Source: an uncultured Acidimicrobiales bacterium (GTDB lineage: Bacteria; Actinomycetota; Acidimicrobiia; Acidimicrobiales; CAVXTF01). From it: a stretch of DNA of 64,000 nucleotides. The stretch is from NCBI GenBank assembly GCA_963801315.1, contig CAWDEI010000002.1, forward strand, positions 17,516-81,515. Reading direction: 5' to 3'. Made by a program: the position numbers and the translations under genes. Below, piece after piece: positions 4,017-61,875 of this stretch (its first letter is position 1; each line of letters begins with the position of its first letter). The notes under the pieces are model-generated. The model had not been told where the DNA came from, made no database searches, and was given only the letters and a program-made list of their open reading frames with translations.

Positions 4017-4786
4017 GTGAATTCGGCCACCGAATCCCCGATACTTGCGTTGCTTCGGCGGGACCTCGAATGCTTCGCGGAGGAAATGAAGCCCCTCGAG
4101 GGAGGCTGGTTGGTGCGTTCACTCGCCTTCGAGAAGGTTTACGAGCTCAACCAGGTGCGGTTGAAAGCCCCGATCGAGTTCGAGAAGTGCCTCGCTCTCA
4201 CCGAAGAGTGCATGTCCGAATTCGCGTTCCGTCACCTGGTGATCGAGGACGGCAGCGCTGCGGCCCATCTGGAAGGGCGATTCCTCGCCGCGGGGTGGAA
4301 CGTCGAACGCGACGTCATCATGGCATTGGACCGCCCACCGGATCGCGAGGTGGACACCAGTGCCGTGGTCGAACTCGAAGAAGACCAGATGGTAAAGCTG
4401 ATGAAGCTTTGGGCTCTGGAAGAGCACGTTGGCATTGCACCGGAGACAGTCGGCCAGCTGATGGAGTACAACCGTCTGGTGGGAAGAGCATGGAACGAAA
4501 GGTGCTTCGGCATCGTCGGAGACGACGGCGCACCGGTCGCGATAACCAAGCTGCGCATGAACGACACCGTCGCTTGGGTCGAAGATGTGTACACGGTGCC
4601 CGAGGCGCGGGGCGTGGCTACGCCCGAATGCTCGTGACCCATGCCACAGCGACTGCACGATCGGATAGAAAGGACCTGACCTTCATTCTCGCCGACGACG
4701 ACGACTGGCCCAAGAACCTCTATTCGCGGATCGGATTCGATCGCGTCGGCGAGATGCGGGTGTTTCGCTTGACTCCGTCTGCCTAG
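4017..4786 (+). pseudogene. GNAT-family N-acetyltransferase, frameshifted
   Basis: ORF 4017..4637 ends ...VEDVYTVPEARGVATPECS*. The expected continuation, RGRGYARMLVTHATA...DWPKNLYSRIGFDRVG (acetyl-CoA binding R/Q-x-x-G-x-G/A), is in ORF 4070..4786. The shift lies in a GGGG run at about 4610. Confidence 0.75.
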
Positions 4787-4884
4787 CTGCCCGTCTGCCT
4801 AGCTGCCCGTCCGCCTAGCTGCCCGTCCGCCTAGCTGCCCGTCCGCCTAGCTGCCCGTCTGCCTAGCTGCCCGTCTGCCTAGCT
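4775..4884. repeat. 16-bp tandem repeat, about 6.5 copies (gcctagctgcccgtc[t/c])
   Basis: gcctag recurs every 16 bp at 4781, 4797, 4813, 4829, 4845, 4861 and 4877. The first copy contains the GNAT stop codon TAG (4784-4786). Copies differ only by a t/c polymorphism. Confidence 0.9.
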
Positions 4885-4901
4885 ACCTCGCCTCGATCGG
4901 T

Positions 4902-6049
4902 TCAGAGGCCGATCAGGTCCGCCACCTTCGCCCGGTGCTGCGACGCCGTTCCGAGAAGCGCAGCCGCGGTCCTCACTCGCTTCACGTACAGGTGCATGTC
5001 GTGCTCCCACGTGTAGCCGATACCCCCGAGGCACTGGATGCCCTCGACACCGATCAGTCGCTCGCAGTCCCCCGCGGCCGACTTCGCCATCGACGCCGCG
5101 AGGGTCCGGCGTCCATCCTCCTCTGCGATGGCAGCCGCGGCGAAGCGCACCGTCGCACGGGTGGCCTCGAGTGCCACGTACATGTTGGCGAGCTTGTGCT
5201 TCATGGCTTGGAAAGAGCCGATCTTCACGCCGAACTGCTCACGCGTCTTGGCGTACGCGAGGAGGATGTCGACGATCCCCTGGCAAGTGCCGACCATCTC
5301 GGCAGCGAGTGCGGTCGTCGCCTCTTCGAGGATCCTCTGCAGGACGTCCGCGCACGATCCAGGCTCTCCCAGTGCGTCACCGGCTCCGACGGCCACAGAC
5401 GACAGGTTCACCGCAGCGAGCTCGCGGGTCGAGTCGAGCGACGCCATCGGCCGGATCTCGAGGCCTTCAGCGTCGGCCGGCACGACGAAGAGTCCGAGGC
5501 CGTCGGCTCCGGTCGAACCTTCGAGGCGGGCCACGACGACGAGGTTGCTCGCCCTCGACGCCTCGAGCACGAAGGCCTTCCTCCCGTCGATGACGATACC
5601 CGCCGTCGCGGGGCACGAAGACCGTACGCACCCCTTGCAGGTCGAAGCTCCCCGCCGCCTCTGCGAATGCGAGGGTCCCGGCGGCACCGCTCCCGGCTAT
5701 CGGGTCGAGAAACCGGCTCTGCTGTTCTGCCGATCCCGCTTCGCGGACAGCGGTCACGAACTGGGACGCCGTCGCGAGGAAACGGTCCCGGCGCGAGGGC
5801 GCGGCCGAGCTGCTCGGAGACGACCGCAAGCTCCACGGCACCGAGGCCGAGGCCGCCTTCCGCTTCGGGAACCGTCAGAGAAGGCCAGTCGAGCGCCACC
5901 ATCCGGGTCCAGAGGTCGTCGACCGCCTTCGCGGCGTCCTGCTGCTCTTCGACCACGCGCCTCGCCAGGTCGACTGACTGCTCGCGGTCCAGCACGTCTC
6001 GAACCGAGGTCTCGAGCTCGCGCTGCTCGTCGGAAAGGTCCAGATCCAT
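4902..6049 (-). pseudogene. acyl-CoA dehydrogenase, two frameshifts
   Basis: The family sequence runs through three frames: MDLDLSDEQRELE...SEQLGRALAPGPF (ORF 5408..6136), then LATASQFVTAVREAGSAEQQSRFL...FDLQGVRT (ORF 5467..5841), then ...GIVIDGRKAFVLEA...GGIGYTWEHDMHLYVKR (ORF 4902..5687). Shifts are at about 5778 and 5620. Confidence 0.8.
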
Positions 6050-6065
6050 CGTCGTCGTGCGCCCG

Positions 6066-8219
6066 TCAGCTTCCAGCGCTGTCCGTCGAGGAGCCTTGAA
6101 GCACCACGAGCGAGTCGACGGCGACCGCACCAGCACCTTGCTCGCGGACGACGACGGGATTCAGGTCGAGCTCGGCGAGCCTGTCACCACAGGCGGTGGC
6201 GAGCGACGCGACCGATAGGGCCACGTCGACGAGAGCCTTCGTGTCACCCTTCGGACGACCCCGCGCGCCGGCGAGAAGCGCGGCGCCGCGCAGGGACGCG
6301 ACCATCTCTTCGACGTCGCGCCTGTCGACCGGAAGCGGCCTCACCGCGACATCGCGGAGCACCTCGGCGAAGACACCGCCGGTTCCGACGAGCAGCACCG
6401 GGCCGAACACCGGGTCGGTGGACAGCCCGACGATCATCTCGGTGCCGCCTTCAGCTGTTGCTGGACCTGGATTCCCTCGATCCGTGGGCGCGGGCTTCAT
6501 GGCCTCCGCCCGGTCGGTCAGCTCGCGGTAAGTGGAGCGGACCTCGGCGGCCGAGCCGACATCGAGACGAACGAGCCCGGCATCGGACTTGTGCGCGATG
6601 TCGGGAGAGGCGACCTTCATCACGACCGGGTAGCCGAACGAGTCGGCCGCGCGGACCGCCGCGGCAGCCGAGGTTGCGACCGTGTCGCCGGCGAGGGGAA
6701 CGCCGAACGAATCGAGCAACCGGCGCGCGAGGTCGGTCCCGACGCCGACCGTCGCGGCCGCTCTGGCCGCCAGCGCGGTCGCCGATCGCTCGGACGACAA
6801 GCCCGGCAGCTCGAGATCGCGCGCCGGCGTTGAGCGTGCTCGCACGCGGGCGGAAGTGCTTCGCAGCGCGCTCGTACCCGGCGAACGAATGCAGAGCCGA
6901 GAAGCAGTTGCGGAACGACCTGAAGAGCGGCACTCCGGCGTCCACGAGCGTGCGGAACCCGGCCTCGTCGGTCTTGAAGGAGTTCCAGGTCACGACGACG
7001 GGCTTCGGGAGCTCGTCGATGAACGCGACGATGTCCTCGGCGAACCGGTCCGTCAGCCGTCCGAGCGCGCCAGTGAGGCCGACCACCACGACGTCGATGT
7101 TCTCGTCGGCACAGATGAGGTCGAACACGCGCCGACGGTCCTCGATCGGATTGGTGACGAGGAATTGCGCCCCGTTGTCGACCGGGTTGGCGACAGTCAG
7201 GTAGTCGGGGATCATCGACCTGAGTGCCTGCTGCGTCGAGGGCCCGAGCACGGGAACCGGCACGCCGTGAGATTCGGCGACCTCGGCCATGAGAGCTCCC
7301 GAACCGCCCGAGATCGAATAGAGACATGCGTTCGGACCGGTCCCGGCGGGAAGCTTGGCAAACAGCGCGGCCGTTTCGAGGAGCTCGTCGAGATCCCGCA
7401 CCCTCACCACGCCGTACTGCTGGAACAGCCCGTTCACGACGGCGTCGGAGCCGGCGAGGTGCCCGGTGTGCGAAGAGGCCATCCGGGTGCCCGCCTCGGT
7501 CGATCCCACCTTCAGGGCGACGACGGGTTTTCGCGCGGAGTTGGAGGCCTCGAGGGCCCGCCTCAGCTTCGGCGGGTCCTTGAAGCCCTCGAAGTAACCG
7601 GCGATCACCGCCGTGTCGTCGTCGTGTGCGAAGTACTCGATGAAGTCCGCCGCCTCGAGGTCGAGCTCGTTGCCGGTCGGAACCCAGCGGCTGAACGAGA
7701 CTCCGAACTCGGTTCCCTGGACGATGGGCCGGCCCTGGTGGCCGCTCTGGGTGACGAGACCGATCCTGCCGCCGCGTCTCGTTGGAGGCTCCGGCAGCTC
7801 CTCGAACGCGTTGGTGTTGGTGTTCGGCCCGAAGACCCGCATCGAGTACTTGCGCGCCATCTCGCCAACCGCGCTCCATGCGTGCGCCTTCGGGCCCTAC
7901 CTCGGAGAACCCGGCAGTGAAGATGAGGACGTAGTTGACGCCGTGCTCGCCGCACTCCTCCACGGTCTTGAGCACGTACCGGGTGCCGACGTTCACGACG
8001 GCCAAGCGGGACCTTCGCCGGGATGTCGGTCACGTGCTCGTAGATCGGGATGTCCCCGACCGAACCGCCCTTGGCGTTCACGAGGTACCAACGGTCGCCC
8101 CAGCGCTCGCCGTAGTGGGCGCGGAGCTTCTCGGGCTTCGAGTTCCGGTTGACCGAGCCCACGAGGGCGACCGCTGTCGGGTGGAAGAACTCCTCCAGGT
8201 CGGTTCGCTGCTGGGCCAC
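6066..8219 (-). pseudogene. NDP-forming acyl-CoA synthetase (CoA-binding + ATP-grasp; ADP-forming acetate-CoA ligase family), multiple frameshifts
   Basis: One protein is split over ORFs 7605..8219, 6620..8005, 6451..7860 and 6066..6845. The sequence runs FFHPTAVALVGS..., VNVGTRYVLKTVEECGEHGV..., GRIGLVTQSGHQG...SSHTGHLAG..., then ...YPVVMKVASPDIAHKSDAGLVRL...GGTEMIVG. Shifts are at about 8005, 7870 and 6830, plus a compensating pair at about 6445-6505. Confidence 0.8.
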
Positions 8220-8244
8220 TCGCCCCCTACCTCTCCACTTTCCT

Positions 8245-8312
8245 GCTCTGCCCAGTGACGCTCTGCCCAGTGACGCTCTGCCCAGTGACGCTCAGCCCAG
8301 TGACGCTCAGCC
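8245..8312. repeat. 15-bp tandem repeat, about 4.5 copies (cccagtgacgctc[t/a]g)
   Basis: Copies lie at 8251, 8266, 8281 and 8296. The stop codon of the SDR gene (tca at 8307-8309) lies in the last full copy. Plus-strand ORF 8149..8376 (SDALPSDALP...) is a translation artefact of this repeat. Confidence 0.9.
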
Positions 8313-9134
8313 GAACAGCGACGAGAGGTCGATGGTCCCCGTCGTCATCCCGCCGTTGAAGCCTCCGTCTGCGTAGACGTTGGCGCCCGTCACGTAACTG
8401 GCGGCGTCACTGTTCAAGAAGGTGAGAACGTGAGCCTGCTCCTCGGGAGTCGAGTTCCGGCCCCAGAGAGGCTTCGGGAACTTGTCCATGAAGTCCTTGC
8501 CCATCGCCTGTACGAACGAAGGCATCATCGGGGTGTCGGTGGGACCGGGGCTCGTGCAGTTGACCCGGATGCCCTTCGGTGCGTACTCGATCGCTGCACG
8601 CATCGTCCAGATGATGATGACCTGCTTGGAGAGCAGGTATCCCTCGCCGACGAGCTCCGGGGTGGCCTCGCACCAGGCCTTGGCCTCTTCGTACCCGGGG
8701 GTCTCGAAAAGAGGCGAGACCGCCTCGATCATGTGCTCCCAGCCCATGCCGCCGGCAGAAGAGATCGTGGCCACTGCACTGCCCGAAGGCATCATCTCGG
8801 CGGCCTTCGACGTCAGGTGCCTGGCGGCCACGAAGTTGACGAGCATGGTGTCGAGCCCCGAGAACGGCGGCCCGGGGAGTCCGGCGCAGTTGAACAGGGC
8901 GTCCAGACCCGAGCCGCCGAGATCGGCGACCGCTTCGTCGATCGCATCCGGTGAACGGAGGTCGACCTGACCTGTAGCTGGCGACATCGGACGTCGGCTC
9001 CTTCATGTCGAACACGTGCACCTCGGCACCGAGCTCGAGCAGGTCGCGGACCGTCGCTGCGCCCATCCCGCGCCGCCGCCGCCGCTGACGAGGACGCGCT
9101 TGTTCTCGTAGCTCCAGATGCTCGCCACAGCCAT
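8307..9134 (-). pseudogene. short-chain dehydrogenase/reductase (SDR), two frameshifts
   Basis: MAVASIWSYENKRVLVSGGGGAG is encoded at 9134-9066 in frame 1. MGAATVRDLLELGAEVHVFDMKEPTSDVASY is in ORF 8407..9213. QVDLRSPDAIDEAV...YLLSKQVIIIW...VNCTSPGPTDTPM...ADGGF is in ORF 8307..8987. Shifts are at about 9065 and 8970. Confidence 0.75.
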
Positions 9135-9289
9135 CCCTTTCCGATCGGATCCCTGTTCGGTACCCGTTCGTTGCGTGTTCGTTGCCTGTTCGAGTCCTAT
9201 CGCATCCGGTCACCGGAGGTCACGCCGGCACACACCACTGACCAATCTTCGTCCGGTGGCAGTCAGGGCCGTCTCAGCCCTGATCGCCT

Positions 9290-10442
9290 CTAGCCAAGGC
9301 GGTAGAGCTCGAGGGCGTTGTCACAGACCATGCGGCGTCGCTCGGCTTCGGGCACCCCACCCATCGAATCCTCGATGACCCGCCTGCTGTACGGCCAGTC
9401 GTGACGGTGGTGCGGGTAGTCGGTCGACCACATCATGTTGTCGACGCCGATCCAGTGCCTAGTGGCCACGGCGAACGGCTCGCGGATGAAGGTCGCCTTC
9501 CAGTTTCGCCGGAAGTACTCGCTCGGCAGTCGCTTGAGCGGCGACTTCGTCCAGGTCCTGTTCCGCCAGTAGTGGTCGTCCATGTGCTCCAAGAAGTGCG
9601 GGATCCAGCCCACTCCGCACTCGACAGCCACCATCTGCAGACCCGGGAAGCGGTCGTAGATGCCCGAGTAGATGAACTTCGACATGAACTGCGAAGCGTC
9701 ACCCACGGGTCCGCCCATCTCGGCGAGCCCGATCTGCTCGGCCGAACGAGGCCGCAGCCTTCTGGAACGAGCCCTCCGACTTGCGCTTTCCCGCCTGGCG
9801 CAGGCCGCTGTGGATGTGGATGGGCATCTGCTCTTCTTCGGCGGCCTCCCAGAACGGGTCGTCCTCCTCGGACAGTTCCGACCCGCCTGAGGGATAGGCG
9901 GAGATGATCACGCCCCGGTAGCCGGCCGCTTTCGCATCACGCAACCACTTGACGGCGGTGGACGTGTCGACGCCTGGCATCTGGGCAAGCCCGATCAGCC
10001 GATCCGGGTCCGCGGACATGAACTCGTCGTGCATCCAGGTGTTGTAGGCCTCGAGGCCGGCTAGGTGGTAGTCGTCGTCCTCCTGTGCCATGAAGGCACC
10101 CATCGTCCTCTGCGAAGGGAAGAGAACTTCGGCGTCGACCCCGTCGATGTCCTGCTCCTCGACCCGGGCCTTTCCCTCGTAGGCGCCTTTGCGCATCGAT
10201 TCGTAGGTGGACCCGTACCACTCGAGCTCCTCGTAGCGCTTGCCCCATCTACCGGCGTTGGTCACGAGACCGAGAGGCATCGGTGGCGTTCCGGGCACGA
10301 GCTCCCAGGCGTCGCCGCCTTTCTCGTCCTTCACGAGCTTCGGTGCGCGATCCGCGAATTTCTTCGGAAGGTACTTCGACCACATGTCGGGCGGCTCGAT
10401 CACGTGCCCATCGGCGGAGATCAGCCGGTATTCGCGCCCCAT
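9290..10442 (-). pseudogene. amidohydrolase-2 (ACMSD-like metal-dependent hydrolase) family, frameshifted
   Basis: The N-terminal part is ORF 9699..10442 (MGREYRLISADGHVIEPPDMW...). The C-terminal part is ORF 9290..9718 (...GWIPHFLEHMDDHYW...WSTDYPHHRHDWP). The junction ...KAAASF / AEQIGLAEMGGPV is at about 9745. It is a paralogue of the intact gene at 19158. Confidence 0.8.
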
Positions 10443-10553
10443 CCTTCCTCCCTGCGACTTTCCTGCGACCTTGGCCGTCGGGGCGAACCAAGTTGCCAGG
10501 TTGCCGTTGCCCGGCAGGAGACGTTTCGCGGCCTTTGACCAGCCCGAAGTTCC

Positions 10554-10569
10554 CTGACTCTCGTGTCAG
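10554..10569. promoter_or_regulatory. palindromic operator-like site CTGACTCTCGTGTCAG
   Basis: Exact CTGAC-N6-GTCAG, about 112 bp upstream of the amidohydrolase start (10442, minus strand). The same motif occurs at 19094, 27741 and 27774. Confidence 0.5.
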
Positions 10570-10588
10570 CTTACTTCGTGCCCATCCT

Positions 10589-10623
10589 GGTCGCCTTTGG
10601 GTCGCCTTTGGGTCGCCTTTGGG
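10589..10623. repeat. 11-bp tandem repeat x3 (tcgcctttggg)
   Basis: Three exact copies at 10591, 10602 and 10613, in the non-coding stretch upstream of the amidohydrolase gene. Confidence 0.85.
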
Positions 10624-10768
10624 CCGACGCCGCCTCCGAGGTCGACATGCCGTTTCTATTTTGGCGTTTTGTATACACATTGTTATATACACGCCCGTTC
10701 CATAAACGCCGATTTTGAATCCGCCGAGAGACTCTGACTCCGCAAGGCGGCAGCGCGGCTCAGGACGC

Positions 10769-11614
10769 TCAAAACCCCTTGAACTCCGGCTTCCGGCGCT
10801 CGGCGAAAGAACGCATCCCTTCGCCGGCATCCGCAGTCCCGATCGTGATCTCCTGGGCCCACGCTTCTTCGTCGAAAGCGGTCCGACGGTCCGATTCGAG
10901 AGACCGGTTGATCATCCATTTCGCCAGCCCCAATGCCTTGGTCGGCCCGGACGCCAGCCGTGCCGCCCACTCGCCTGCGGCCGACTCGAGATCGGCGCGA
11001 GGCACAACGCGGTTGACGAGACCCATCGCGCACGCGTCGGCGGCCGGCAGGTCGTCGCCGAAGAAGATCAGCTCCTTTGCCTTCTGCGGGCCGATGAGGC
11101 GGGCGAGGAGGTAGGCGCCACCACCGTCGGGCGCGATCCCCCTGCGGACGAAGACCTCTATGAACTTGGCGGAGTCCGCGGCGATCACCAGATCACATGC
11201 AAAGGCGAGATGAGCACCGATCCCCGCTGCCGTGCCGTTCACAGCGGCGATCACCGGCTTCTCGCAGTCGAGCACCGCGGAGATCAGGCGCTGCGCACCC
11301 AGCCTGATCATCCGCGAGGCGTCCCCGACGATCCGATCGGGAGCGCCCTCGGGCCGGGGCGGCGCAGGAGCACGGGCCGATCCACGGAGATCCGCGCCGG
11401 TGCAGAAGCCCTCGCCTGTCGCCGTGAGCACCACGGCTCTCGTCGCATGGTCCCGCGACGCCTGCTCGAGCAGGTCGATGACCCGGTCACGTTGGTCCGA
11501 CGTGATGGCATTGCGCACCTCGGGCCGGTTGAGGGTTATCCAGGACACCCCGCCCTCGATCCTGTGCTGAACCTGCTCTTCGAGCGGCGGTGCGGCAGCA
11601 GCGTCGTCGGGCAC
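10769..11614 (-). CDS. enoyl-CoA hydratase/isomerase (crotonase family)
   Basis: Intact 281-aa ORF with ITLNRPEVRNAI, FCTGADL and AAVNGTAAGIGAHLAFACDL (oxyanion-hole segments). Confidence 0.85.
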   Translation of the reverse strand: MPDDAAAAPPLEEQVQHRIEGGVSWITLNRPEVRNAITSDQRDRVIDLLEQASRDHATRAVVLTATGEGFCTGADLRGSARAPAPPRPEGAPDRIVGDASRMIRLGAQRLISAVLDCEKPVIAAVNGTAAGIGAHLAFACDLVIAADSAKFIEVFVRRGIAPDGGGAYLLARLIGPQKAKELIFFGDDLPAADACAMGLVNRVVPRADLESAAGEWAARLASGPTKALGLAKWMINRSLESDRRTAFDEEAWAQEITIGTADAGEGMRSFAERRKPEFKGF

Positions 11615-11714
11615 TTTTCGCCTCCTCAGGACCGAGCCGCCCGGGCGGCGGCGCGAAAGAGTGCTACCTGCTCCGAGTTGGTCACGTCAACGTCGCCGCT
11701 GGTGCCGCGTCAGC

Positions 11715-11754
11715 TTCGTTGCCTCTGGCACCGCGTCAGCTTCGCCGCCGCGAT
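11715..11754. promoter_or_regulatory. pair of 14-bp direct repeats (ccgcgtcagcttcg) in a divergent promoter region
   Basis: Identical 14-mers at 11715-11728 and 11741-11754, between the crotonase start (11614, -) and the CoA-transferase start (11805, +). Each contains a GTCAG half-site. Confidence 0.4.
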
Positions 11755-31991: not shown

Positions 31992-33143
31992 TCAGCGATC
32001 CATCCGCCAGTAGCGGTGAGTCGCGAACGAGCTGATCGCGAACAGAGCGACCACTACGCCGAGTGTCCATCGGAGAAGCACGTGATTCCCGGCGAGAGGA
32101 TCAGTGCCGAAACCTGCGGCGAACTGATACGCGCCGATCCCTGCTAAAACCGCCAGGAGCGACGCCCAGGAATAGGCCATCTTCAGGCGCCAGCGACGCT
32201 TGAGGTCCGGAACGGCGACATCGGAGCACGAAGCCGCAAAAAGGGAGAAGATCGCTTCGTTGACATCGCGCGCCGGCCAGTACCGGACCCCCGAGTGGTT
32301 CCCCGGCATCAGATGAGTTCTGAACGGGAGTACGAGGTGTGCCATCCCCGTGTTTAGAGCCGCCTCCCGCTTGTCCTCGATCAGACCGCTCCCCTGAATC
32401 TGATTGGTCGAAAGGTCCACGTCTCCTGTCGCAGCGACGGGTTGCGGAGCATGCATGCCGGTTATCGCGCACACGTTCCCCAACAGATATGCGAGGTCGT
32501 AGGTGTCTCCGTGACCCGGTCCCCAGATGAAGCGACGGGGCGGAATCTTGAACCGGGTCAGGTGAGCGCGCAAGACCCGGTGATCGTGCACATCGACGAC
32601 GGCATTGTGCTCGATCGCCCAGTTCAACCGCACCGGCCTGAACGGCAGGCGCGGGAACCGTCTCTCTGACACGACGACGGCCCCGTCTCCGAAGGTCCGG
32701 TCTCTGGTCTTAAGCGATGCTCCCGAACGGAGCCTCCGAACGTGATTGTCGACGAACTGAGTCGCCAGCGCATACATGCGGTCACGTTCAGGCAGATCGA
32801 ACGGGTCGAGTGCGTCACGGTTGGCCGGGAGGAGAAGAGCGGCCTCTGCGCCCGGGTGAAGTCGTTCGCGGCCCGGGGCAAGGACATAGATGTTGTCGTA
32901 CAGAGGGAATGCGGTCATTGCAGGCCCGAGGTCGACCGGCTCGAGGTCGACCGGCTCGAGGGTGTCGTCGTCCGGAGGCGATCCGGCGCTCGGCAGGTCG
33001 ACAGCGCTGTGCACGCCGGGCGCGCCCGCATGGACGGGAACGGCCGGGATCACAGGTAGGTCCAGACCGGTTACCGGATCGAACCTGACGTGAGCAGTCC
33101 GCTCACGTCGCTCGGGGCCGGGAGGTTCCGCTAGCACGCCCAC
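31992..33143 (-). CDS. hypothetical membrane-anchored protein with a weak Lon/S16-peptidase-like segment
   Basis: 383-aa ORF with C-terminal hydrophobic helices (YSWASLLAVLAGIGAYQFAAGF, TLGVVVALFAISSFA). The internal GPGHGDTYDLAYLLG...AATGDVDLSTNQIQGSGLIEDKREAALNTGMAHLVLP resembles the S16 fold pattern G-P-S-A-G...A-x-T-G-x-i...G-G-i-x-x-K-x-x-A-A. The start may instead be the MTAFPLYD Met at about 32918. Confidence 0.4.
   Translation of the reverse strand: MGVLAEPPGPERRERTAHVRFDPVTGLDLPVIPAVPVHAGAPGVHSAVDLPSAGSPPDDDTLEPVDLEPVDLGPAMTAFPLYDNIYVLAPGRERLHPGAEAALLLPANRDALDPFDLPERDRMYALATQFVDNHVRRLRSGASLKTRDRTFGDGAVVVSERRFPRLPFRPVRLNWAIEHNAVVDVHDHRVLRAHLTRFKIPPRRFIWGPGHGDTYDLAYLLGNVCAITGMHAPQPVAATGDVDLSTNQIQGSGLIEDKREAALNTGMAHLVLPFRTHLMPGNHSGVRYWPARDVNEAIFSLFAASCSDVAVPDLKRRWRLKMAYSWASLLAVLAGIGAYQFAAGFGTDPLAGNHVLLRWTLGVVVALFAISSFATHRYWRMDR
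32928..32961. repeat. 15-bp in-frame tandem duplication inside a CDS (gaggtcgaccggctc x2.3)
   Basis: It encodes LEPVDLEPVDL in the hypothetical protein. The unit is a multiple of three, so the frame is preserved. Confidence 0.8.
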
Positions 33144-35856: not shown

Positions 35857-37071
35857 TCAGACCTGGTTCCATTGGTAGTTAGGGAGCCCGTAGCCAGTCG
35901 CTAGGGGATTCCATTGATTCGTGAATCCCATCTTGTAGAGCGTGGCCTGCTCGTTGGGCGTGACGGCAGCCTGCCAGTGTGCGTTCGCGGAGTAGTCGGT
36001 AGAGCAATTTCCGATCTCACTGTTGGCCCAGCCTGCATAGTCGCTATCGACAGTTTCGGATGTCTGCCAAGCATGTTGGAGGTTCTGGACCATCTTCTGA
36101 GGCAACGTCGACAGGCCGCGAAGAGCTTTCAGCATCGTCAGAAGATGCTGACGAGATTTTGCGGCACTCCCGAAGACCTGGGCGTCCCCGACAAGGTTCG
36201 GGCCGCAATTCTCGACATCGTTGTTGGCATTGACGATGGCATCGCGATCGATCGCGCTCTGACCGAGAAGTCCTGCGAGGGATGTCGCAGCTTGTCGTTG
36301 CGTAACCGGAGCTGCCGTCGGAGGTGGCGGAAAAGATGTGACCGGGGTCGTCACGGGGGTCGTCACGGGACTCGTGATCGGAGTCGTCACCGGAGAGGTC
36401 GAGGGCGTGACCGAAGTCGTCGTGGATATGCCCGTCTGGGGTTGGGTGGTAGTCGAGGCGGACGCCTTGTGCCCGTTGGATACGAGGACATACGCAAGGG
36501 CACCGGAGCCGAGCACGAGGAGCACGGCAACTACGGCAACAAGGGCGGCCCACGGCCTTCGGGGCTTCTTCTGACCGCCATAGTAGGGCCCGCCGCCCGA
36601 AGCCGGCGGGCCCGGGGCGCGCGGAGGCGGAACTCCCGGTGGTGGAGCTGGCGGCGGCGAAGCGACAGGGACCGCAGCGGCCGGGACCGGAGCGTTCCAA
36701 TCCCAAGCGCTCGGCGTCTCGGGGACCGCACCGGTCAAGTCCGGGGGACGTGTCAGCGTCTCTGTTGGGACGTCGATGGGTCCGGTTCCCGGAGGCGCTG
36801 GAGGTGCCGCACTCGGACCAGATACGGCGCCGGGAGCTACTGGCTCCGGTGCTCCGGCCAAGCGGGCACCACAGGTTTCGCAGAACGAACCGCGGGCGTT
36901 CGTCGGGTGCCCGTTCGGACACATGACCTGCAGCGGTGCACCACACTCGGTGCAGAACGCGCCGCTATGTCCTCCAGGGGGTGCGGGGTGCCGATTCGGA
37001 CAGATGAACTCGCCTGGTGCCACCGCCACATCCCACCCTGGTCGCCGGGGGGCCGATACTAGGTTCATCAA
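35857..37071 (-). CDS. double zinc-ribbon, proline-rich, single-pass membrane protein (unknown function)
   Basis: Two zinc ribbons (CPNRHPAPPGGHSGAFCTECGAPL and CPNGHPTNARGSFCETCGARL), a Pro-rich tract, a TM segment (WAALVAVVAVLLVLGSGALAYVLV) and an extracytoplasmic C-terminal domain. Confidence 0.6.
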   Translation of the reverse strand: MMNLVSAPRRPGWDVAVAPGEFICPNRHPAPPGGHSGAFCTECGAPLQVMCPNGHPTNARGSFCETCGARLAGAPEPVAPGAVSGPSAAPPAPPGTGPIDVPTETLTRPPDLTGAVPETPSAWDWNAPVPAAAVPVASPPPAPPPGVPPPRAPGPPASGGGPYYGGQKKPRRPWAALVAVVAVLLVLGSGALAYVLVSNGHKASASTTTQPQTGISTTTSVTPSTSPVTTPITSPVTTPVTTPVTSFPPPPTAAPVTQRQAATSLAGLLGQSAIDRDAIVNANNDVENCGPNLVGDAQVFGSAAKSRQHLLTMLKALRGLSTLPQKMVQNLQHAWQTSETVDSDYAGWANSEIGNCSTDYSANAHWQAAVTPNEQATLYKMGFTNQWNPLATGYGLPNYQWNQV

Positions 37072-37220
37072 CCCGTGAGCTCAACATGTGGATGCTTACG
37101 CGTAACACTCGTGCAGCCGGTATCAGGGCTTGCGGAGGACTCCCAGCTTCGTGCGCCGGATCAGCCAGTCGCGACGCCTCATCGGTCACACTCAAAATCT
37201 CTAGATCGATTTACGTGGCG

Positions 37221-37294
37221 TGGGGGTAGCAAGAATCGAACTTGCGACCTCAGCATTATCAGTGCTGCGCTCTAACCGACTGAGCTATACCCCC
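37221..37294 (-). tRNA. tRNA-Ile (anticodon GAU)
   Basis: The reverse complement GGGGGTATAGCTCAGTCGGTTAGAGCGCAGCACTGATAATGCTGAGGTCGCAAGTTCGATTCTTGCTACCCCCA folds as a cloverleaf. It has a 7-bp acceptor stem GGGGGTA/TACCCCC, anticodon loop CTGATAA and TTCGATT T-loop. CCA is not encoded. Confidence 0.9.
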
Positions 37295-37520
37295 GAGGGC
37301 CATGCCGACTTGACCCCGAGATCCTAGTCCCGGTCCCGGTTCGACCACCCCGGCTTTCCGTGCCGTAGCTGGAATCCCCCGTAAGAGCAGCACCACATGA
37401 CCTCGTTCTCATTAGGAACGATGCCGGCTGGCTCTTGCGGGAACGTACGAGATGGATGCCGCACCAGGTGTCCCCTGAACGTCATCGCCGTTTCGCGTCC
37501 GCGATTCTCACAATGGCGGG

Positions 37521-39210
37521 TTGTCCGATCCCGCGTCGACGCGACGCGCCCTACTAGCATCCGGGCGGATGAATGGCGGGCCGGCACGAAGCGGGCAGGC
37601 GCTTCGATTGGTCTGGTTCCTCGCTCCAGTTGCGGCACTGCTTGCGTTCATTCCGTCGCTCTGGGCTGGCTATCTCGCCGACGACTTCGTGATGCTTCGA
37701 ACGATCAATGTGCTACACCTTCCTCTGCAAGCATTTACGCACAATGACATCGGCGGCACTGTAGGTCATCCGTACAGACCGCTCTGGGTGCTCGCCAACG
37801 GTGCGATCAACAGGCTGACCTCGAGCTCCGTGGCGCATCACCTTTTCAATGTCGCGCTCTATGCCGTAGCAGCGGTTCTCGTTGTCGTCATCGCCGACCG
37901 CTTCGTCGAACGGCGTGTTGCCGTTCTCGCCGGTGTCCTCTTCGCGCTGTACCCGCGTCACGCCGAAGCTGTGGCGTGGATCGCCGGATCGACCGATCTC
38001 TTGGCAGGGTTCTTCACGCTGGCAGCGCTGGCAGCGCTGACGGCACGGGAGGCGCCGAAGTGGGCGCTTGCCGCCGGCGCGGCTCGCGGGGGTTGCGGCC
38101 CCGCTGGCCAAGGAATCGGCATACCCTCTCCCGACGCTGGCCATCTTGCTCGTGGCCGCACTTTGGTCGTCAGAAACCGCGCCCGTTCGTAAGCGGCGGG
38201 CGGTGGCGGTCGCAGTCCTTACGGTGGGCGTCGTGGGTGACCTTTTGGTGCGTACCCTGGTCATTCACGGTTTGGGCAACGACGTCACCGAGCCCTTTGG
38301 TCTCCACCGGCTCGCGGTCGTGCTTGCATCTCAGCTCTTGGCGACATTCACCACGTCGCAGATGCCCGTGCTGGAGCATCCGGCTCTGCTGGTGATACCG
38401 GTCGCGGTCGCGACGCTTGCCGTGTTTGCGTCGCTCCAAACGATCCGGAGTGGTGTCGGCTCGCGTCAGAGGCTGCTGATCGTCGGAGTCGTCTGGTATC
38501 TCGTCTCTCTTGTACCGATTTACAACAATGCTGTCGTTCTGAACGACGCCAATGGTGAGCGGCTCCTATATCTCCCGTCAGTAGGTTTCGCGCTGGCGAT
38601 CGCCGCTGTTGCAGCTCCGTTGCTCGAACTACGGTACGGACGAGCCTTGATGGCACTCGGCGCGATAGCCGCTCTGTTTGCCTGTCTTGCGGGCTCGATG
38701 GACTACGTCACGGCTGGCCAAATCCGCAATCGTGTCATTGCCGACACCATCCGGCTGGCACCCAAGAACGCCACGGTGGTCGTCCTCAACATCCCGGACT
38801 CCAACCGGTCGGCTCGACTACTTGGCGCCGGGTTCCCCGAAGCCATCGCGAGAGCCGGTCGAGCTGACCTGAAGTTCGTAACGTGCGCTCCAAGCATCGT
38901 CGAGACCGGCAGCCCCCAGCCACTTCATTTCACCATCCAGACGAACGGCGAGATCTTGGCGCAATCGACGGCAAGCCTGCCTTTCGAGACGCCGGAGAGC
39001 GGGCGGGCGATCGGGACAGGCGGTTGCGTCTACAGTCCGGATCCCGTTGGGAAGCTAGCACCGGGCCTCGAGACGGCTGTCCTGCTCCGCCTGGCTCCCA
39101 CTGGCGGGAACACCATCTACCTTTGGTTCGATGGGGTCAACATGCAGGCGTGCAATCCAACGGTCTGTCCGGGTTTGGACAACACGGACGCGTCTTCGGT
39201 GGCAAGCTGA
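37521..39210 (+). pseudogene. GT-C-type polytopic membrane glycosyltransferase (ArnT/PMT-like), frameshifted
   Basis: ORF 37521..38192 has multiple TM segments and a first-loop acidic motif (YLADDFVML). ORF 38068..39210 continues it (LAGVAAPLAKESAYPLPTLAILLVAAL... plus more TMs and a soluble C-terminal domain). The shift is at about 38070 in GGGGG/CCCC runs. The start may be the Met at about 37569. Confidence 0.6.
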
Positions 39211-39230: not shown

Positions 39231-40432
39231 ATGACAGCCTTGCTGTCGACTCCATTGCCTGAGGTGAACTCCAACGAGAGGGCGGCTGGCCGGCGAGCCT
39301 CGATCGCGGTGTCAGCCCGTGCGGCCGTCCTCCCGTTCATCGTCACGCGTGCGATCGTTCTCGGTGCCGTCGTTCTGGCTCGGTTCTTGGTCGACCAGTT
39401 GCACCCGTCAGTGAGGAGCCCAGCGGGAGCCAGAGCCGTCCAGACAGCCCACTCCGGGCTGCTGGCGTGGGACGCATCCTGGTACCGCCAGATCGCGGAG
39501 TTCGGCTATGCGAAATCGGGTGAGCCTGCATTGCGCTTCTTCCCCGCGTTCCCACTTCTCGGAAGGGCGCTCGGAACGCTGACGGGCATATCGGACGGCG
39601 TCGCGCTGATCGTGCTGGCCAATCTGTTCGGGTTCGGCGCTCTCGTCCTCTTGCATGCGCTGGTGTCGCGCGAATCGCTGGGCAGCTCGACCGCCGTTCG
39701 GACGATCTGGATCATCTCGCTCTGGCCGGCCGCGTTCGTTCTCGTCATGGGCTACGCGGAGTCGCTATTTCTTTGTCTGTCCATCGCCGCCTTCTTGTGC
39801 TGGCGTACCGGGCGCCCGTGGTGGTCACTCGCGCCCGCATTCCTGGCGGGACTGTGCCGTCCTGTCGGCGCCCTACTGGCACTACCGGCTCTCGTGGAGG
39901 CGATCAGATGGTGGCGCGCCGGTGGACGACACCCGTTGGGAATACTTACGGGACGCCTGCTCGCGATACGCGGCGGCCCCACTCGGGATGCTGACGTACC
40001 TTTCCTGGTCGGCGGTCGCTGCCGGAGGTTTCCTCGAGCCGCTTTCGCAGCAGACGTCGCGAGCGCACCGAGGTGGGATCTCCGACCCGTTCGTCAGCAA
40101 TTGCGCACGACACGGTCGACCTTGTACACGGCCAGCATCTCGGCAGTGCGCTCCACACGCCGTTCGCTGTCGTCTTCGTCATTCTTACGATCTACCTGTT
40201 CTTCAAGCTTCCTGCGGAGTACGGGTGGTACGCCGCAGGCTCGATGCTCGTGGCGAGCGCTTCACCGAACCTCGACTCACTCGAACGATACGGGCTCGCC
40301 TGCTTCCCGTTGGCGATCGCGGCAGCGTGTCTGACCGAACGTCGACTCGCACTGCGGGCAGTGCTGACCGGTATGGGAGCGCTCCTCACTACGTTCGCAC
40401 TGCTCGCATTCCTAGGGCTCTACGTCCCGTGA
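39231..40432 (+). pseudogene. GT-C mannosyltransferase-like membrane protein (PIG-V-like), two frameshifts
   Basis: ATG 39231 (MTALLSTPL...LLAWDASWYRQIAEFGY...) is in ORF 38883..40334. AAAPLGMLTYLSWSAVAAGGFLEPLSQQ...GGISDPFVS is in ORF 39655..40551. IAHDTVDLVHGQHLGSALHTPFAVVFVILTIYLFF...LERYGLACFPLAIAAA is in ORF 40073..40432. Shifts are at about 39965 and 40095. Confidence 0.6.
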
Positions 40433-40477
40433 TACAACGGGGCACCAGATGTCCCGTGATGCAGCGGGGGACCAGCA
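40424..40477. repeat. 27-bp imperfect tandem duplication (22/27 identical) spanning a stop codon
   Basis: gtcccgtgatacaacggggcaccagat followed by gtcccgtgatgcagcgggggaccagca. The first copy contains the TGA (40430-40432) of the upstream glycosyltransferase gene. Confidence 0.75.
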
Positions 40478-43889: not shown

Positions 43890-46454
<2,565 letters not shown>

Positions 46455-51113: not shown

Positions 51114-51137
51114 CTCGAAAGACGACTCGAAAGACGA
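51114..51137. repeat. 12-bp exact tandem duplication (ctcgaaagacga x2) just upstream of the rpmH RBS
   Basis: Seen directly. It is followed by gagggag and then GTG 51144. Confidence 0.8.
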
Positions 51138-57928: not shown

Positions 57929-57997
57929 CTGTGTGGTCGAATCAACGTCCACCGCAAGTGGAGAGTATCCACATCCTGTGCATGAAGCTGTGGATTA
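57929..57997. promoter_or_regulatory. DnaA-box-like cluster in the lower-GC spacer downstream of parB
   Basis: gTATCCACA (57966-57973) and TGTGGATTA (57989-57997, reverse complement TAATCCACA) face each other. Weaker tgtggtc (about 57932) and gtccacc (about 57947) are also present. The 286-bp spacer 57799-58084 has no convincing ORF. Confidence 0.45.
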
Positions 57998-58084
57998 GGC
58001 GAAACGTTCACCATGGCTTCACCCTTGCTTTACCCTTATGTCACGTGCCCTTCACCGGGGCTTCACGCGACGCGGAGGGCTCCC

Positions 58085-59090
58085 TCAGTCGACAGAGGTG
58101 GTCGCCCACTCGGTGAGAGCCTCGGCGAGTGCCACGGCAATTCGGGGCGTGCGCTCGACCACCAACCCAGCCGGGCCGAGCTCACAGACGACGGCCGGCA
58201 TACGCGTCTCCCTCAGGACAGGTAGAGACATGCCCTCGGGCTCGCAAGGAGGCAGGTCGAGCTCCGCGGGCACGCGACTCTGAACCAGTTCGGCCAGGCG
58301 CTTGCCGCCGGCCGACTCGTACCGGTATCCCGCGTAGTGAGACGTGGTGCACCGGTGCGAAGACGGATCGAGTCGCAGTCCGAGGAAGACCTCTGCGTTG
58401 GCTGCGTTCGCCGCAGTTGCTTGGGCGAAGCCGTCGGGGTGAAGGACAGGTACAGCGTTGGCTCCGGCTCTGTGCAGGGCCCGTCGGACAGCGGACGCCA
58501 GGGCGTCGAGGCCCCCCTCTTCTCCGACGGCTATGCAGCGTCGGAGGAGGGTCTTCGGCAGGTGCCGAAGCCGGTCGCGGTCGCGGAACCGAGCTGACCA
58601 GTTCGGGCAGCTCGCGGCGGGGCATCACTCGTCGGAGCTCGCTCAGGGTGTCGGCTCCTAGGATCGCGTCGACGGGTAGCCCGAGGTTGCGCTGGAAGTC
58701 GGCCAGTGCCATCGCGGTTCTCCGCCCGAAAATGCCGTCCACCCGGCCGGTGTCGAAGCCGAGGGCCGAGAGACGACGTTGCAGGTCCGCAACGTCGTCA
58801 CCGCGCAGCATCGCTCGACGGTGGTACAAGAACCGGTCCCCGAGCCTGAACCCGGCCTCCACCAACGCCGCCCAGGTTTGGGGCCCGCACGTCCCGTCCA
58901 CGCGAAGGCCCCTCAGGTGCTGGAAAGCCTCTACGGCGGCTCGAGTCCCGGGCCCATAGGAGCCGCCGGCGTCCGGAAGGACGTCGATGCCGAGCGCCGA
59001 CAGGCGCGTCTGGAGATCCGAGACCGCAGGTCCTTCGTGTCCCGGCCCGAGCGGCAGGGCGGTGCCGGGCGACTTCTCTACGACTCCAGA
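58085..59090 (-). pseudogene. CwlM-like N-acetylmuramoyl-L-alanine amidase (two PG-binding repeats + amidase_3), frameshifted
   Basis: The PG_binding_1 repeats (GPAVSDLQTRLSALG...TRAAVEAFQ and GDDVADLQRRLSALGFDTG...TAMALADFQ) are in ORF 58182..59363. The amidase domain (FRDRDRLRHLPKTLLRRCIAVGEEGG...GYRYESAGGKRLAELV...LPVLRETRMPAVVCELG...) reads in another frame ending at 58085. The shift is at about 58595. I found no in-frame ATG/GTG/TTG between the trxA stop and the first repeat, so the 5' end is unresolved. Confidence 0.7.
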
Positions 59091-59125
59091 GCTGAAATTG
59101 ACACGCTCCGGCGCCGGGCGCCCAC

Positions 59126-59455
59126 TCAGGCGAGGAACGGAGCGATCTCCTGGAGGAGCTGGGCCTTGCCCCTTGCCCCCGTTATGCGGACCTTTGGCTC
59201 CCCGTCCTTGAAGAGGATCAGGGTCGGGATGCTCATTACCTCGAATCGTCTCGTCACGTCGAGGTTCTCGTCGATGTTGATCTTCGCCACCTGTACCTTG
59301 CCGACGTTCTCGCCTGCGATCTGCTCGAGCACCGGAGCGATCATCTTGCACGGGCCGCACCACTCCGCCCAGAAGTCCACCAGAACAGGTGTGTCGGCCA
59401 GCTTGACATGTTCGTCAAAGCTAGCGTCGCTCAGCGTCGTGATCTCGTTGCTCAT
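59126..59455 (-). CDS. trxA: thioredoxin
   Basis: MSNEITTLSDASFDEHV...VDFWAEWCGPCKMIAP. ATG 59455 is preceded by GAAGGGA. The ORF track extends to 59473. Confidence 0.92.
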   Translation of the reverse strand: MSNEITTLSDASFDEHVKLADTPVLVDFWAEWCGPCKMIAPVLEQIAGENVGKVQVAKINIDENLDVTRRFEVMSIPTLILFKDGEPKVRITGARGKAQLLQEIAPFLA

Positions 59456-59555
59456 GATCGTCCCTTCGTCCACCGCTGCCTGAGAGAGCCACTCTCGACA
59501 GCGAGCTCGTGTTTCGCACGGCAGACAGAGAACACCTGTCAGCCCGATCTATTCC

Positions 59556-59583
59556 GGGTCCGTTGCCTAGGGTCCGTTGCCTA
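59556..59583. repeat. 14-bp exact tandem duplication (gggtccgttgccta x2) spanning the trxB stop codon
   Basis: Copies lie at 59556-59569 and 59570-59583. The trxB TAG (cta at 59581-59583) is in the second copy, and a second TAG follows 14 nt downstream on the coding strand. Confidence 0.85.
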
Positions 59584-60567
59584 GGGCCGCGTCTGCTTGG
59601 TGGCTTCCAGCCACCGTTCGACGTCGATCGCCGCCATGCAGCCCGAACCGGCGGCCGTCACCGCCTGACGGTAGTAATGGTCCTGGACGTCGCCGCAGGC
59701 GAAGACCCCTTCCACGTTCGTGGCGGTGCCGACGTTCGTGCCGGGGCCACCTTTCGTGCGGATGTAGCCGTTTTCGTCGAGGTCGATCTGCCCGGTGAAC
59801 ACAGTCGTGTTCGGTATGTGGCCGATCGCGACGAAGACGCCTGCGGCTGGAAGGTCTTCGGTCGCGCCGGTCTCGACGTCGCGTACCCGTACTGCGCTCA
59901 CCTTCGAGTCGCCGAGCACCTCTTCTACGACCGAGTTCCAACGGAATGCGATGCGATCGTTGGCGAACGCGCGGTCCTGCATGATCTTGGAGGCCCGGAG
60001 CTCCTTGCGTCTGTGGACGAGCGTCACGGTGTCGCCGAAACGCGAGAGGAAAAGCGCCTCCTCGACGGCTGAGTCGCCGCCGCCGACGACGATAATTTCC
60101 TTTTCTTTAAAGAAGAATCCGTCACATGTGGCACAGGTCGACACTCCGTGGCCGAGAAGTCGCGCCTCGCCCGGGACTCCGAGCATGAGCGATCTCGCGC
60201 CGGTCGCGACGATGAGCGCCGTAGCGCGGAGGTCAGGTTCCGGCGCGTGTTCGTCATCGGTCCACACGCCGAAGGGACTTTGCGACAGATCGACTCGCGT
60301 GGCTCTTCCCGTCATGAACTTCGCCCCGAACCGCTCGGCCTGAGCGCGGAAGCGCTGCATCAACTCGGGACCGAGGATCCCGTCGACGAAACCGGGGTAG
60401 TTCTCCACCTCTGTCGTCACCATGAGCTGCCCGCCGGGCTGGTCGCTCGTGGAGGAGATCTCGCCCTCGATCACGAGCGGCTGCAGGTTGGCCCGCGCTG
60501 TGTAGATGGCGGCCGTGACGCCGGCGGGGCCGGAGCCGAGGATCACCACCTGGTGCGTGTCGGTCAC
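59581..60567 (-). CDS. trxB: thioredoxin-disulfide reductase
   Basis: 328-aa ORF with FAD motif ILGSGPAGVTAAIY, the redox centre CATCDG and NADPH motif VVGGGDSAVEEA. Confidence 0.94.
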   Translation of the reverse strand: MTDTHQVVILGSGPAGVTAAIYTARANLQPLVIEGEISSTSDQPGGQLMVTTEVENYPGFVDGILGPELMQRFRAQAERFGAKFMTGRATRVDLSQSPFGVWTDDEHAPEPDLRATALIVATGARSLMLGVPGEARLLGHGVSTCATCDGFFFKEKEIIVVGGGDSAVEEALFLSRFGDTVTLVHRRKELRASKIMQDRAFANDRIAFRWNSVVEEVLGDSKVSAVRVRDVETGATEDLPAAGVFVAIGHIPNTTVFTGQIDLDENGYIRTKGGPGTNVGTATNVEGVFACGDVQDHYYRQAVTAAGSGCMAAIDVERWLEATKQTRP

Positions 60568-60568
60568 C

Positions 60569-60970
60569 TCAGGCGTCCTTTGCCTGCGCGGGACTTCGCT
60601 TCGTCCATGCGAGAGCGCCGGCCACGACCATCAGAGCTCCGACGAGCGCGTCCGCCGGCCAGACGCGGTGCCCGAACGCATAGACATCGAGCAGACGGAT
60701 CAGGGCAATGGCGAGAAGTACGCAAAGGACGAGCGCCATGGAGGCCACGACGATGCCGAACACGACGGCGCGTGCAGCGAGAATGATCGGCCGGATGGCA
60801 CGATCCTGGACCGCCCCGACGACGTCCTCGACGGTCTGGGCGACCTTGGAGGGCCACTCAGATCCCGCGATTCCTCTTCCGAGCGACCCCGAGCCCGCCG
60901 CGGGAGCCCGCGCCGGCTCCGCCTCGGGTGCTCGTACCGCGGGCCCATTTGCCGCCTGACCGTCGACCAT
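60569..60970 (-). CDS. small hypothetical membrane protein
   Basis: ORF 60569..60994 has two hydrophobic helices (AVVFGIVVASMALVLCVLLAIALI and ALVGALMVVAGALAW). The Met at 60970 avoids overlap with the degV end. Confidence 0.45.
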   Translation of the reverse strand: MVDGQAANGPAVRAPEAEPARAPAAGSGSLGRGIAGSEWPSKVAQTVEDVVGAVQDRAIRPIILAARAVVFGIVVASMALVLCVLLAIALIRLLDVYAFGHRVWPADALVGALMVVAGALAWTKRSPAQAKDA

Positions 60971-60980
60971 TCCGACGAGG

Positions 60981-61825
60981 CTAGCTGCGGGCAACCAAGA
61001 AGCAGACGCCGATTGTTCCCGGGCCTGTGTGGCTACCTACGACCGGCCCGAGCGAGGACACCTCGAGCGGATGAGCGCTCTTCGCATTCCGGAGCATGTC
61101 GGCGACCTCGTCGGCATCCGTCGCCCGGCCATCGGCGAGCGCGATGCGCTCGAGAGGGCCTGCATCGAGGGCTTTCGAGGCCAGGTACTTCACCGCGCGG
61201 GTACGCTCCGCTGCTTCGAATCGACCTCCACGACACCGTCTCGGACCTCGAGAACTGGCTTGATCGAAAGCAGCGATCCCACGAGATGAGACGCTCCTCC
61301 GATGCGACCGCCCTTGCGTAAGAAGTCGAGGCTGTCGACCACTCCGAACACGTGGACGCGTGCAGCGGCGTCTTCGACGCCCGCCAACACCTCGTCGAGG
61401 CTGTTCGAAGAAGCGGCGAGATCGACTGCTTCGATGACGAGCAAGCCGAGTCCCATGGTGAGGGTGAGCGAGTCCACCACGGCCACCTGGATGCGGTCTG
61501 CCACAGCATCCGCGGCAGTCCGGGCCGCCTGAAACGTCGCGGACACCTTCGAGGAGAGGTTTATGCAGATCACACCGTCCATGCCGGCGTCGGCCGCGTC
61601 GCTGAAAACGGCCTGGAACGCACCAGGAGACGGAGCGGCGGTCTGCGGCATGTGCGGGCCGGCGACGACGCGGTCCCAGAACTCCTTGTCCGACAGCTCG
61701 ACCTTGTCGATCAGCTCCTCTTCACCGAATCTGATCGTGAGAGGAACGACCCGGATACCGAGCTTGTCGACCAGATCCGAGGGGAGGTCGCACGCGCTGT
61801 CGGTCACCACCTGGATGCCGGGCAT
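60981..61825 (-). pseudogene. DegV family fatty-acid-binding protein, frameshifted
   Basis: ORF 61190..61825 (MPGIQVVTDSACDLP...TAAPSPGAFQ...VVDSLTLTMGLG...) continues in ORF 60981..61193 (RTRARAVKYLASKAL...GPVVGSHTGPGTIGVCF). The shift is at about 61205. AAGGAGG RBS before ATG 61825. Confidence 0.75.
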
Positions 61826-61837
61826 CCGCCCTCCTTA

Positions 61838-61875
61838 TTGCTTCAGATCTCACGGGTTGCTTCAGATCTCACGGG
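61838..61875. repeat. 19-bp exact tandem duplication (ttgcttcagatctcacggg x2) spanning the murJ stop codon
   Basis: Copies lie at 61838-61856 and 61857-61875. The murJ TGA (tca at 61869-61871) is in the second copy. The duplication makes up most of the 43-bp murJ-degV spacer. Confidence 0.85.

Follow-up and report, generated by a model that had tools for sequence, protein, structure and literature searches.

Why do short tandem repeats in one stretch of an actinobacterial chromosome so often begin within the last codons of a gene and enclose its stop codon? The stretch, hereafter the window, comprises 64,000 nucleotides (64 kb) from an uncultured Acidimicrobiales bacterium (contig CAWDEI010000002.1). 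A reading of its sequence alone had listed eight short tandem repeats, five of them straddling a stop, and had attributed the pattern to a lineage-specific slippage or duplication process whose survivors are translationally neutral, or alternatively to selection for back-up stops or spacers. The observation behind this original prediction is partly confirmed and its interpretation partly supported by the analysis described here: the slippage and survivor part is largely right, the functional alternative is unsupported. We consider the five repeats to be young local tandem duplications that are retained where they are harmless and whose clustering at stops reflects survivorship, not function; we assign this reading a probability of about 0.75.

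Tandem repeats at gene ends

Repeats were detected with Tandem Repeats Finder (TRF), and those with a score of at least 45 and a period of at least 7 were counted. Reading frames were taken from the GC content at third codon positions (GC3) and from a frame-aware Viterbi segmentation based on codon usage that tolerates frameshifts. All eight repeats of the initial list were recovered at their positions. The list is not the full set, as the window holds 17 repeats at the same stringency, 10–12 of which touch non-coding DNA, and the share that straddles a stop is hence five of 10–12. In the reconstructed frames, each of the following five repeats has the terminating stop within its first unit:

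4775–4884, plus strand: array of 16 bp × 6.9 (CCGTCYGCCTAGCTGC); stop TAG at 4784–86 in the GNAT frame.
8245–8312, minus strand: array of 15 bp × 4.5; stop TGA at 8307–09 of the SDR gene.
40424–40477 (TRF end 40475), plus strand: 27 bp × 1.9 with 88% matches; TGA at 40430–32 of a glycosyltransferase-like gene.
59556–59586, minus strand: exact 14 bp × 2.2 (on the gene strand CCCTAGGCAACGGA twice); stop TAG at 59581–83 of trxB.
61838–61876, minus strand: exact 19 bp × 2.1 (on the gene strand CCCGTGAGATCTGAAGCAA twice); stop TGA at 61869–71 of murJ.

All five are arranged head-to-tail with TRF matches of 88–100% and 0% indels, two of them being imperfect (97–98% and 88% matches), and their units are GC-rich. 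Microhomology at the junctions amounts to 0–3 nt, as judged from the TRF lengths (31 = 2 × 14 + 3, 39 = 2 × 19 + 1, 24 = 2 × 12), with 3 nt at the trxB duplication. The start within the last codons carries no extra information, because any duplication that includes the stop and preserves the protein must begin there.

The first unit of the array at the GNAT end consists of the last 3 codons and the TAG, and the array occupies the convergent spacer up to the stop of an acyl-CoA dehydrogenase gene at 4902. Its assignment to a GNAT stop holds insofar as the TAG ends the ancestral frame; an intact protein is not encoded, owing to a 1-nt deletion near 4612. The SDR array sits between the SDR stop and the GTG start (8219) of a CoA-ligase gene. 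The claim that every repeat copy carries another stop fails for this array, where the gene strand reads CTGAGC in the first two copies only and CAGAGC in the rest. Both copies of the 27-bp duplication hold GTCCCGTGA and a small hairpin, and the TGA at 40430–32 closes the last fragment of a gene that is frameshifted several times. Homologues were found for the PIG-L gene next to this repeat. The murJ duplication extends the murJ–degV spacer from 24 to 43 nt, 5' of the ribosome-binding site TAAGGAGG and the ATG at 61825.

Origin and age of the repeats

Among species-representative genomes, the best matches of the window's TrxB are metagenome-assembled genomes of Acidimicrobiales with at most 74% identity. 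The comparison of origins was made with closer relatives (L081–L089 and L094–L107; identities of 86–89% for TrxB, 75–79% for GNAT and 85–92% for SDR) and covers four of the five loci. At each of the four, relatives with 78–92% protein identity have a single unit at the orthologous site and no repeat. The GNAT end of L098–L100 has a single unit (TCGTCCGCCTAGCTGCAG; in L099 and L100 the sequence is TCG TCC GCC TAG CTGCAG) in a convergent spacer of 20 nt, compared with about seven copies and 115 nt in the window. No repeat follows the SDR stop in L081 (92% amino acid identity) or L082, whose spacers are unrelated and non-repetitive. The trxB duplication does not occur in L094–L097 (TrxB identity 88–89%), nor the murJ duplication in L094, L096 and L097, and in L094 the murJ stop falls at the same codon. 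The origin of the repeats is local at these loci; they are recent in-place duplications and not insertions.

Tandem repeats also change in copy number within species of this clade. Two pairs of conspecific assemblies differ by six indels in total, and in three of these an intergenic tandem repeat has gained or lost copies. L099 and L100, which belong to the same species and are 99.8% identical over 20.7 kb, differ by three indels, two of which are of this kind: one of 24 nt, corresponding to three 8-bp units (9.5 vs 6.5 copies) in the spacer orthologous to window positions 8220–8306, and one of 6 nt, corresponding to a single ACGCGC unit (7.8 vs 6.8 copies). L102 and L103 also differ by three indels, one of them a 24-nt tandem duplication near the poly(A) polymerase stop with the extra unit in L102; the repeat region (L102 2396–2481) overlaps this stop as scored by TRF. 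The predicted lineage-specific slippage or duplication is borne out by the absence of four of the five repeats from the nearest relatives together with these differences between conspecific assemblies.

The spacer between the SDR and CoA-ligase genes carries unrelated repeats in different genomes:

Window 8220–8306: 15-bp repeat.
L098 14113–14204: 22 bp × 2.1, straddling the stop.
L099 14010–14106, and likewise L100: 8-bp repeat.

This spacer is of low complexity in all relatives, rich in GACAG/CAGAC and about 37–100 nt long, and it has gained repeats in no fewer than three lineages independently of one another. The density of non-coding repeats is 0.16–0.19 per kb in the window, 0.24 per kb in the near relatives and about 0.06 per kb in distant Acidimicrobiales, where single loci reach up to 7 repeats per 21 kb. 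Lineages thus differ considerably in repeat density.

Placement relative to stops, starts and reading frame

The statistics of placement were computed for three data sets, the window, near relatives (141 kb) and distant Acidimicrobiales relatives (1.27 Mb), using two null models. The interval null places intervals of the observed lengths randomly over all positions touching non-coding DNA. The unit null places one unit at any position that is either entirely non-coding or includes a stop, and treats all non-coding DNA as neutral. Under the interval null, five repeats of the window overlap a stop where 2.1–2.3 are expected (P = 0.04–0.05, for a pattern picked by eye); the corresponding numbers are 7 observed and 7.5 expected in the near relatives, and 13 observed and 17.5 expected in the distant ones. 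A test for enrichment at stops had been proposed along with the original prediction; run on the window and 1.4 Mb of relatives, it yields a weak excess in the former and none in the latter under this null. Placement at stops as more than chance is thus weakly indicated.

The robust signal is an avoidance of start codons. No repeat of the window overlaps a start (2.4–2.5 expected), and overlaps are rare in the near (3 vs 8.1 expected, P = 0.02) and distant relatives (6 vs 18.0 expected, P = 3e-4), giving 9 observed against about 29 expected in the pooled data. In the distant relatives, convergent spacers have the highest repeat density (0.89 per kb of spacer), followed by co-directional (0.44) and divergent ones (0.28). 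Within co-directional spacers, 27 of 40 repeat midpoints lie in the stop-proximal half (stop-proximal vs start-proximal: 16 vs 11 in the distant relatives, 7 vs 1 in the window, 4 vs 1 in the near relatives). Periods divisible by three are found for 197 of 226 repeats within coding sequences of the relatives and for all of those in the window, compared with 37 of 86 outside coding sequences. Start depletion, density gradient and this rule of three together show a selection filter, and the window's five of ten lies at the high end of what such a filter yields. The expectation that survivors are translationally neutral is supported on two counts: coding periods are mostly multiples of three (all of them in the window), and starts are avoided while stops are not.

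These data are best explained by slippage during replication, or by a similar process that duplicates DNA with little homology, operating in this clade of Acidimicrobiales. It would duplicate a segment of 14–27 bp that comprises the last one to three codons, the stop and a few downstream bases, and two of the five duplications would since have expanded into arrays resembling variable number tandem repeats (VNTRs). The original stop in the first copy would still terminate translation, leaving the protein unchanged and the 3' flank merely longer. Duplications would arise everywhere, and selection would purge the majority, both those over start codons, ribosome-binding sites and promoters and, within genes, those whose unit length is not divisible by three. 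Survivors would then accumulate in 3' flanks and, in compact spacers, often touch the stop. The molecular mechanism (slippage or end-joining fill-in) and the neutrality of the duplications are what we infer here.

Alternative explanations

Several results count against survivorship as the full account. Under the unit null, stop-containing repeats are in 4–5-fold excess in the window (5 vs 1.0–1.2, P about 0.002) and in about 2-fold excess in both the near (7 vs 3.0–3.4) and the distant relatives (13 vs 6.8–7.7), which leaves room for a mutational bias towards stop sites. The gene maps derive from our own codon-usage caller and the Viterbi segmentation, not from curated annotation, and make the expected counts approximate. 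The 27-bp locus lies outside the comparison of origins. Copy-number variation was seen in sister species only, and at the window's own loci the contig L107 ends inside the GNAT-end array after 2.3 copies. The unit-null excess, present in all three data sets, would fit a mutational hotspot at sites of translation or transcription termination, where duplications would be seeded at stops in this lineage by end-joining repair or by stalling or conflict at the ends of genes. In line with such a hotspot, non-coding repeats are about three times as frequent per kb in the window (0.19) as in distant Acidimicrobiales (0.06), and stop-straddling repeats recur in the near relatives (L098 14160–14204, L099 2826–2864 and 14990–15036, as well as L101 1741–1792 and L102 2396–2481). 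However, the interval null gives no excess in 1.4 Mb of relatives, many repeats of the clade lie far from stops, and the unit-null excess vanishes if about half of the non-coding DNA is constrained. Such constraint is indicated by the start depletion and by the gradient from convergent to co-directional to divergent spacers; the unit null overstates the neutral territory, because repeats avoid 5' regulatory DNA. We therefore hold a termination-site hotspot to be unlikely, and have equally low expectations of a clade with unusually active tandem duplication whose seeding is biased to the few bases around stops, for instance by replication stalling linked to termination or by end-joining, and in which 3' ends would be mutational hotspots and not merely permissive. 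Should the residual, approximately 2-fold unit-null excess turn out to be mutational, it would point to a termination-linked genome instability of wider interest; the present evidence does not require it. The repeats, together with the frameshifts of the window, could also be artefacts of an error-prone long-read metagenome assembly, given a source contig of 640 kb, heavily fragmented sister assemblies with names of the type contig_N (L098, L105, L106), a gene-splitting 1-nt indel that separates L099 from the conspecific L100, and at least 7 frameshifts of 1–2 nt in conserved genes of the window. Yet single-base indel errors do not produce exact duplications of 14–19 bp or arrays of 16 bp × 7, and among the relatives repeat density does not depend on assembly type (0.067 per kb for long reads, 0.056 per kb for short reads). 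Moreover, L107, a k-mer-based Logan contig (run ERR11523672) that is independent of the window assembly, shows both the GNAT frameshift and the beginning of the 16-bp array, of which it contains at least 2.3 copies; its break inside the array is expected for a repeat longer than k. An artefact is very improbable on these grounds, and the copy number of long arrays may still be mis-estimated.

Selection could have favoured the stop-containing repeats as back-up stops against read-through, or as spacers adjusting how far apart adjacent genes lie or how tightly they are coupled. Most copies contain a stop triplet, the duplication makes up most of the murJ–degV spacer, the SDR–CoA-ligase spacer acquired its repeats in at least three lineages independently, and in Mycobacterium tuberculosis the expression of a gene was correlated with the length of the VNTR in the spacer upstream of it (PMC2734929). 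As back-up stops, however, the repeats are poorly built. Of the five units, those of 15 bp and 27 bp alone place a stop in the reading frame of the gene in the very next copy, 5 and 9 codons on, respectively. With the 16-bp unit this happens no earlier than the fourth copy, and with the duplications of 14 and 19 bp it does not happen at all, so that the 14-, 16- and 19-bp units lack the nearby in-frame stop expected of tandem back-up stops. Three copies of the 15-bp array have lost the stop or never had it. Coupling is irrelevant for the GNAT-end array, which lies between convergent genes and behind a frameshifted one, and a tuned spacer is at odds with orthologous spacer lengths that vary between about 37 and 100 nt. 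None of the four comparable repeats is present in the relatives, nor is there a signal of RNA structure (fold z = +3.4, +1.3, −1.9, −0.9 and +0.9 for the five repeats). For the recurrent hits on the SDR–CoA-ligase spacer, its low complexity alone favours slippage. Neither the back-up stops nor the selected spacers of the original prediction find support in this evidence, and we consider a selected function decidedly unlikely. A role as terminator or structured RNA was likewise rejected, the fold z-scores being unremarkable and the only hairpin, in the 27-bp unit, weak; a scan of window positions 4000–11000 revealed no terminator-like site at 4775–4884 or 8245–8312. Finally, the units might belong to one dispersed mobile family that targets gene ends, similar to mycobacterial interspersed repetitive units (MIRUs), repetitive extragenic palindromes (REPs) or miniature inverted-repeat transposable elements (MITEs). 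The 16-bp and 14-bp units share CCGT(C)TGCCTAG, the 16-bp and 15-bp units share TCTGCCYAG, and a 15-bp × 6.1 array in L098 (999–1090, CTCTGTGCCAGCTGA) resembles the 15-bp unit of the window (GCTCTGCCCAGTGAC). But the best pairwise score among units (10.5) is matched by 19% of control sets from the window's non-coding DNA and the mean similarity has P = 0.057, TGCCTAG occurs only once in 64 kb outside the arrays, and the comparable units are homologous to single-copy sequence at their own sites in relatives, as expected for duplication in place. The shared motifs (TGCCTAG, TCTGCC, CTAG) were accordingly dismissed as chance, and a dispersed family is scarcely credible.

Frameshifts in the window

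Frame breaks near 4612, 5595, 5780, 7873, 8005, 58585 and 61205 hold up against the sequences of relatives, and the conserved genes affected encode GNAT, acyl-CoA dehydrogenase, CoA ligase, an amidase-like protein and DegV. The glycosyltransferase-like gene shifts frame twice (39760–40100). It had been suggested that out-of-frame duplications inside genes contribute to this frameshift load; instead, all seven junctions that can be aligned to relatives are indels of 1–2 nt, and the frameshifts of the window are not to be read as duplication products. The fragmented long-read sister assemblies and the gene-splitting indel between L099 and L100 point to sequencing error as the probable source of many of them. 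The GNAT frameshift, which recurs in L107, may be real.

Relation to known repeat systems

Simple-sequence contingency loci, which change by slipped-strand mispairing, have units of 1–9 nt that are located in promoters or 5' parts of coding sequences and turn genes on and off. The repeats considered here would share the slippage mechanism class with them; their position is in 3' flanks, and no effect on the proteins is predicted. The closest parallels are the intergenic VNTR or exact tandem repeat (ETR) loci of actinobacteria, with the tandem repeats of Borgs also close. In the M. tuberculosis complex the rnc–fpg spacer (ETR-F/VNTR3239) measures 279–358 bp, compared with 20–54 bp in M. avium subsp. 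paratuberculosis and M. leprae (PMC2734929), an expansion that parallels that of the GNAT end (115 vs 20 nt). As in the window, these are lineage-specific head-to-tail repeats on an actinobacterial chromosome that fill the spacer between neighbouring genes. Their copy number is polymorphic among strains, which here was seen only for the sister species, and their units of about 50–80 bp differ from the 14–27 bp units of the window, each of which is unique to its locus.

In some Borg arrays the first unit lies within a gene end, and the units within open reading frames are always multiples of three, in contrast to most intergenic ones (Schoelmerich et al. 2023, PMC9879509). Borg repeats are also recently formed, independently arising and fast evolving. 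Unlike the repeats of the window, they are A-rich, perfect and pervasive on archaeal extrachromosomal elements; those of the window are GC-rich, sparse (about 0.2 per kb), in part imperfect and located on a bacterial chromosome, and thus are not of the Borg type. MIRUs occur at gene junctions in operons, where their frame boundaries overlap the flanking genes and expression is little disturbed (PMC12548453). They form one dispersed, apparently mobile family with units of 40–100 bp that insert at start codons, whereas the window repeats are local duplications that have no family sequence, overlap no start and enclose the upstream stop, and hence do not belong with MIRUs. The pattern is an ordinary one and not a new system. 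It provides a worked null model, in which stop-straddling repeats result largely from compact spacers and purifying selection on coding and 5' regulatory DNA, as well as candidate VNTR loci for strain typing in an uncultured soil or peat lineage of Acidimicrobiales.

Other repeats and features of the window

The window lies in a chromosome of 65% GC, has itself a GC content of 63–70% and contains dnaA, rpmH, parAB, trxA, trxB, a DegV-family gene and murJ, a gene order that is usual around the actinobacterial origin. TRF further reports the following repeats, of which those at 9152–9192, 11691–11751 and 46407–46432 were absent from the initial list:

9152–9192, minus strand: degenerate 11 bp × 3.7 repeat in a co-directional spacer, overlapping neither stop nor start.
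10589–10623, minus strand: exact 11 bp × 3.2 repeat in the promoter or leader of an amidohydrolase gene.
11691–11751, no strand assigned: imperfect 26 bp × 2.3 repeat in a divergent spacer.
32923–32961, minus strand: 15 bp × 2.6 in-frame repeat within a coding sequence (LEPVDLEPVDLGP).
46407–46432, minus strand: 12 bp × 2.2 repeat in a co-directional spacer, 23 nt past a stop.
51114–51137, plus strand: 12 bp × 2.0 repeat directly 5' of the ribosome-binding site and GTG of rpmH.

The spacer corresponding to 9152–9192 carries other repeats in L089 (GCGACAA × 4, GGTTCAGA), and the unit of 10589–10623 is single-copy there. The repeat upstream of rpmH (CTCGAAAGACGA) recurs unchanged in three further species of the clade (L094 19694–19716, L101 19790–19813, L102 19766–19789) and had been pooled with the others; given this identity it forms a different class. 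The sequence further upstream diverges among the four species. This repeat is old and conserved, not a recent duplication, and probably forms part of the leader of rpmH or regulates this gene.

An invariant element (AGTAAGCTGACACGAGAGTCAGGGAACT) lies 5' of the amidohydrolase gene (10553–10581, minus strand), as seen in the alignment with L089, L082 and L083. It includes a TAAGCT hexamer resembling a −10 box and a CTGAC...GTCAG hairpin. The repeat at 10589–10623 is located 16 nt upstream of the conserved TAAGCT...CTGACACGAGAGTCAG element, and an AT-rich palindrome (TGTATATAACAATGTGTATACA) is found further upstream at approximately 10672–10693. Rfam has no match in the leader (10400–10800); its only match in the window is tRNA-Ile.

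The L098 array at 999–1090 sits inside or beside an SDR-family gene. CTAG is strongly under-represented in the window, with 24 sites outside two arrays versus about 207 expected from base composition, and the 16-bp and 14-bp repeats contribute 9 more. The tRNA-Ile(GAT) gene (37220–37294, minus strand) stands alone in about 1.2 kb without coding signal (36575–37781).

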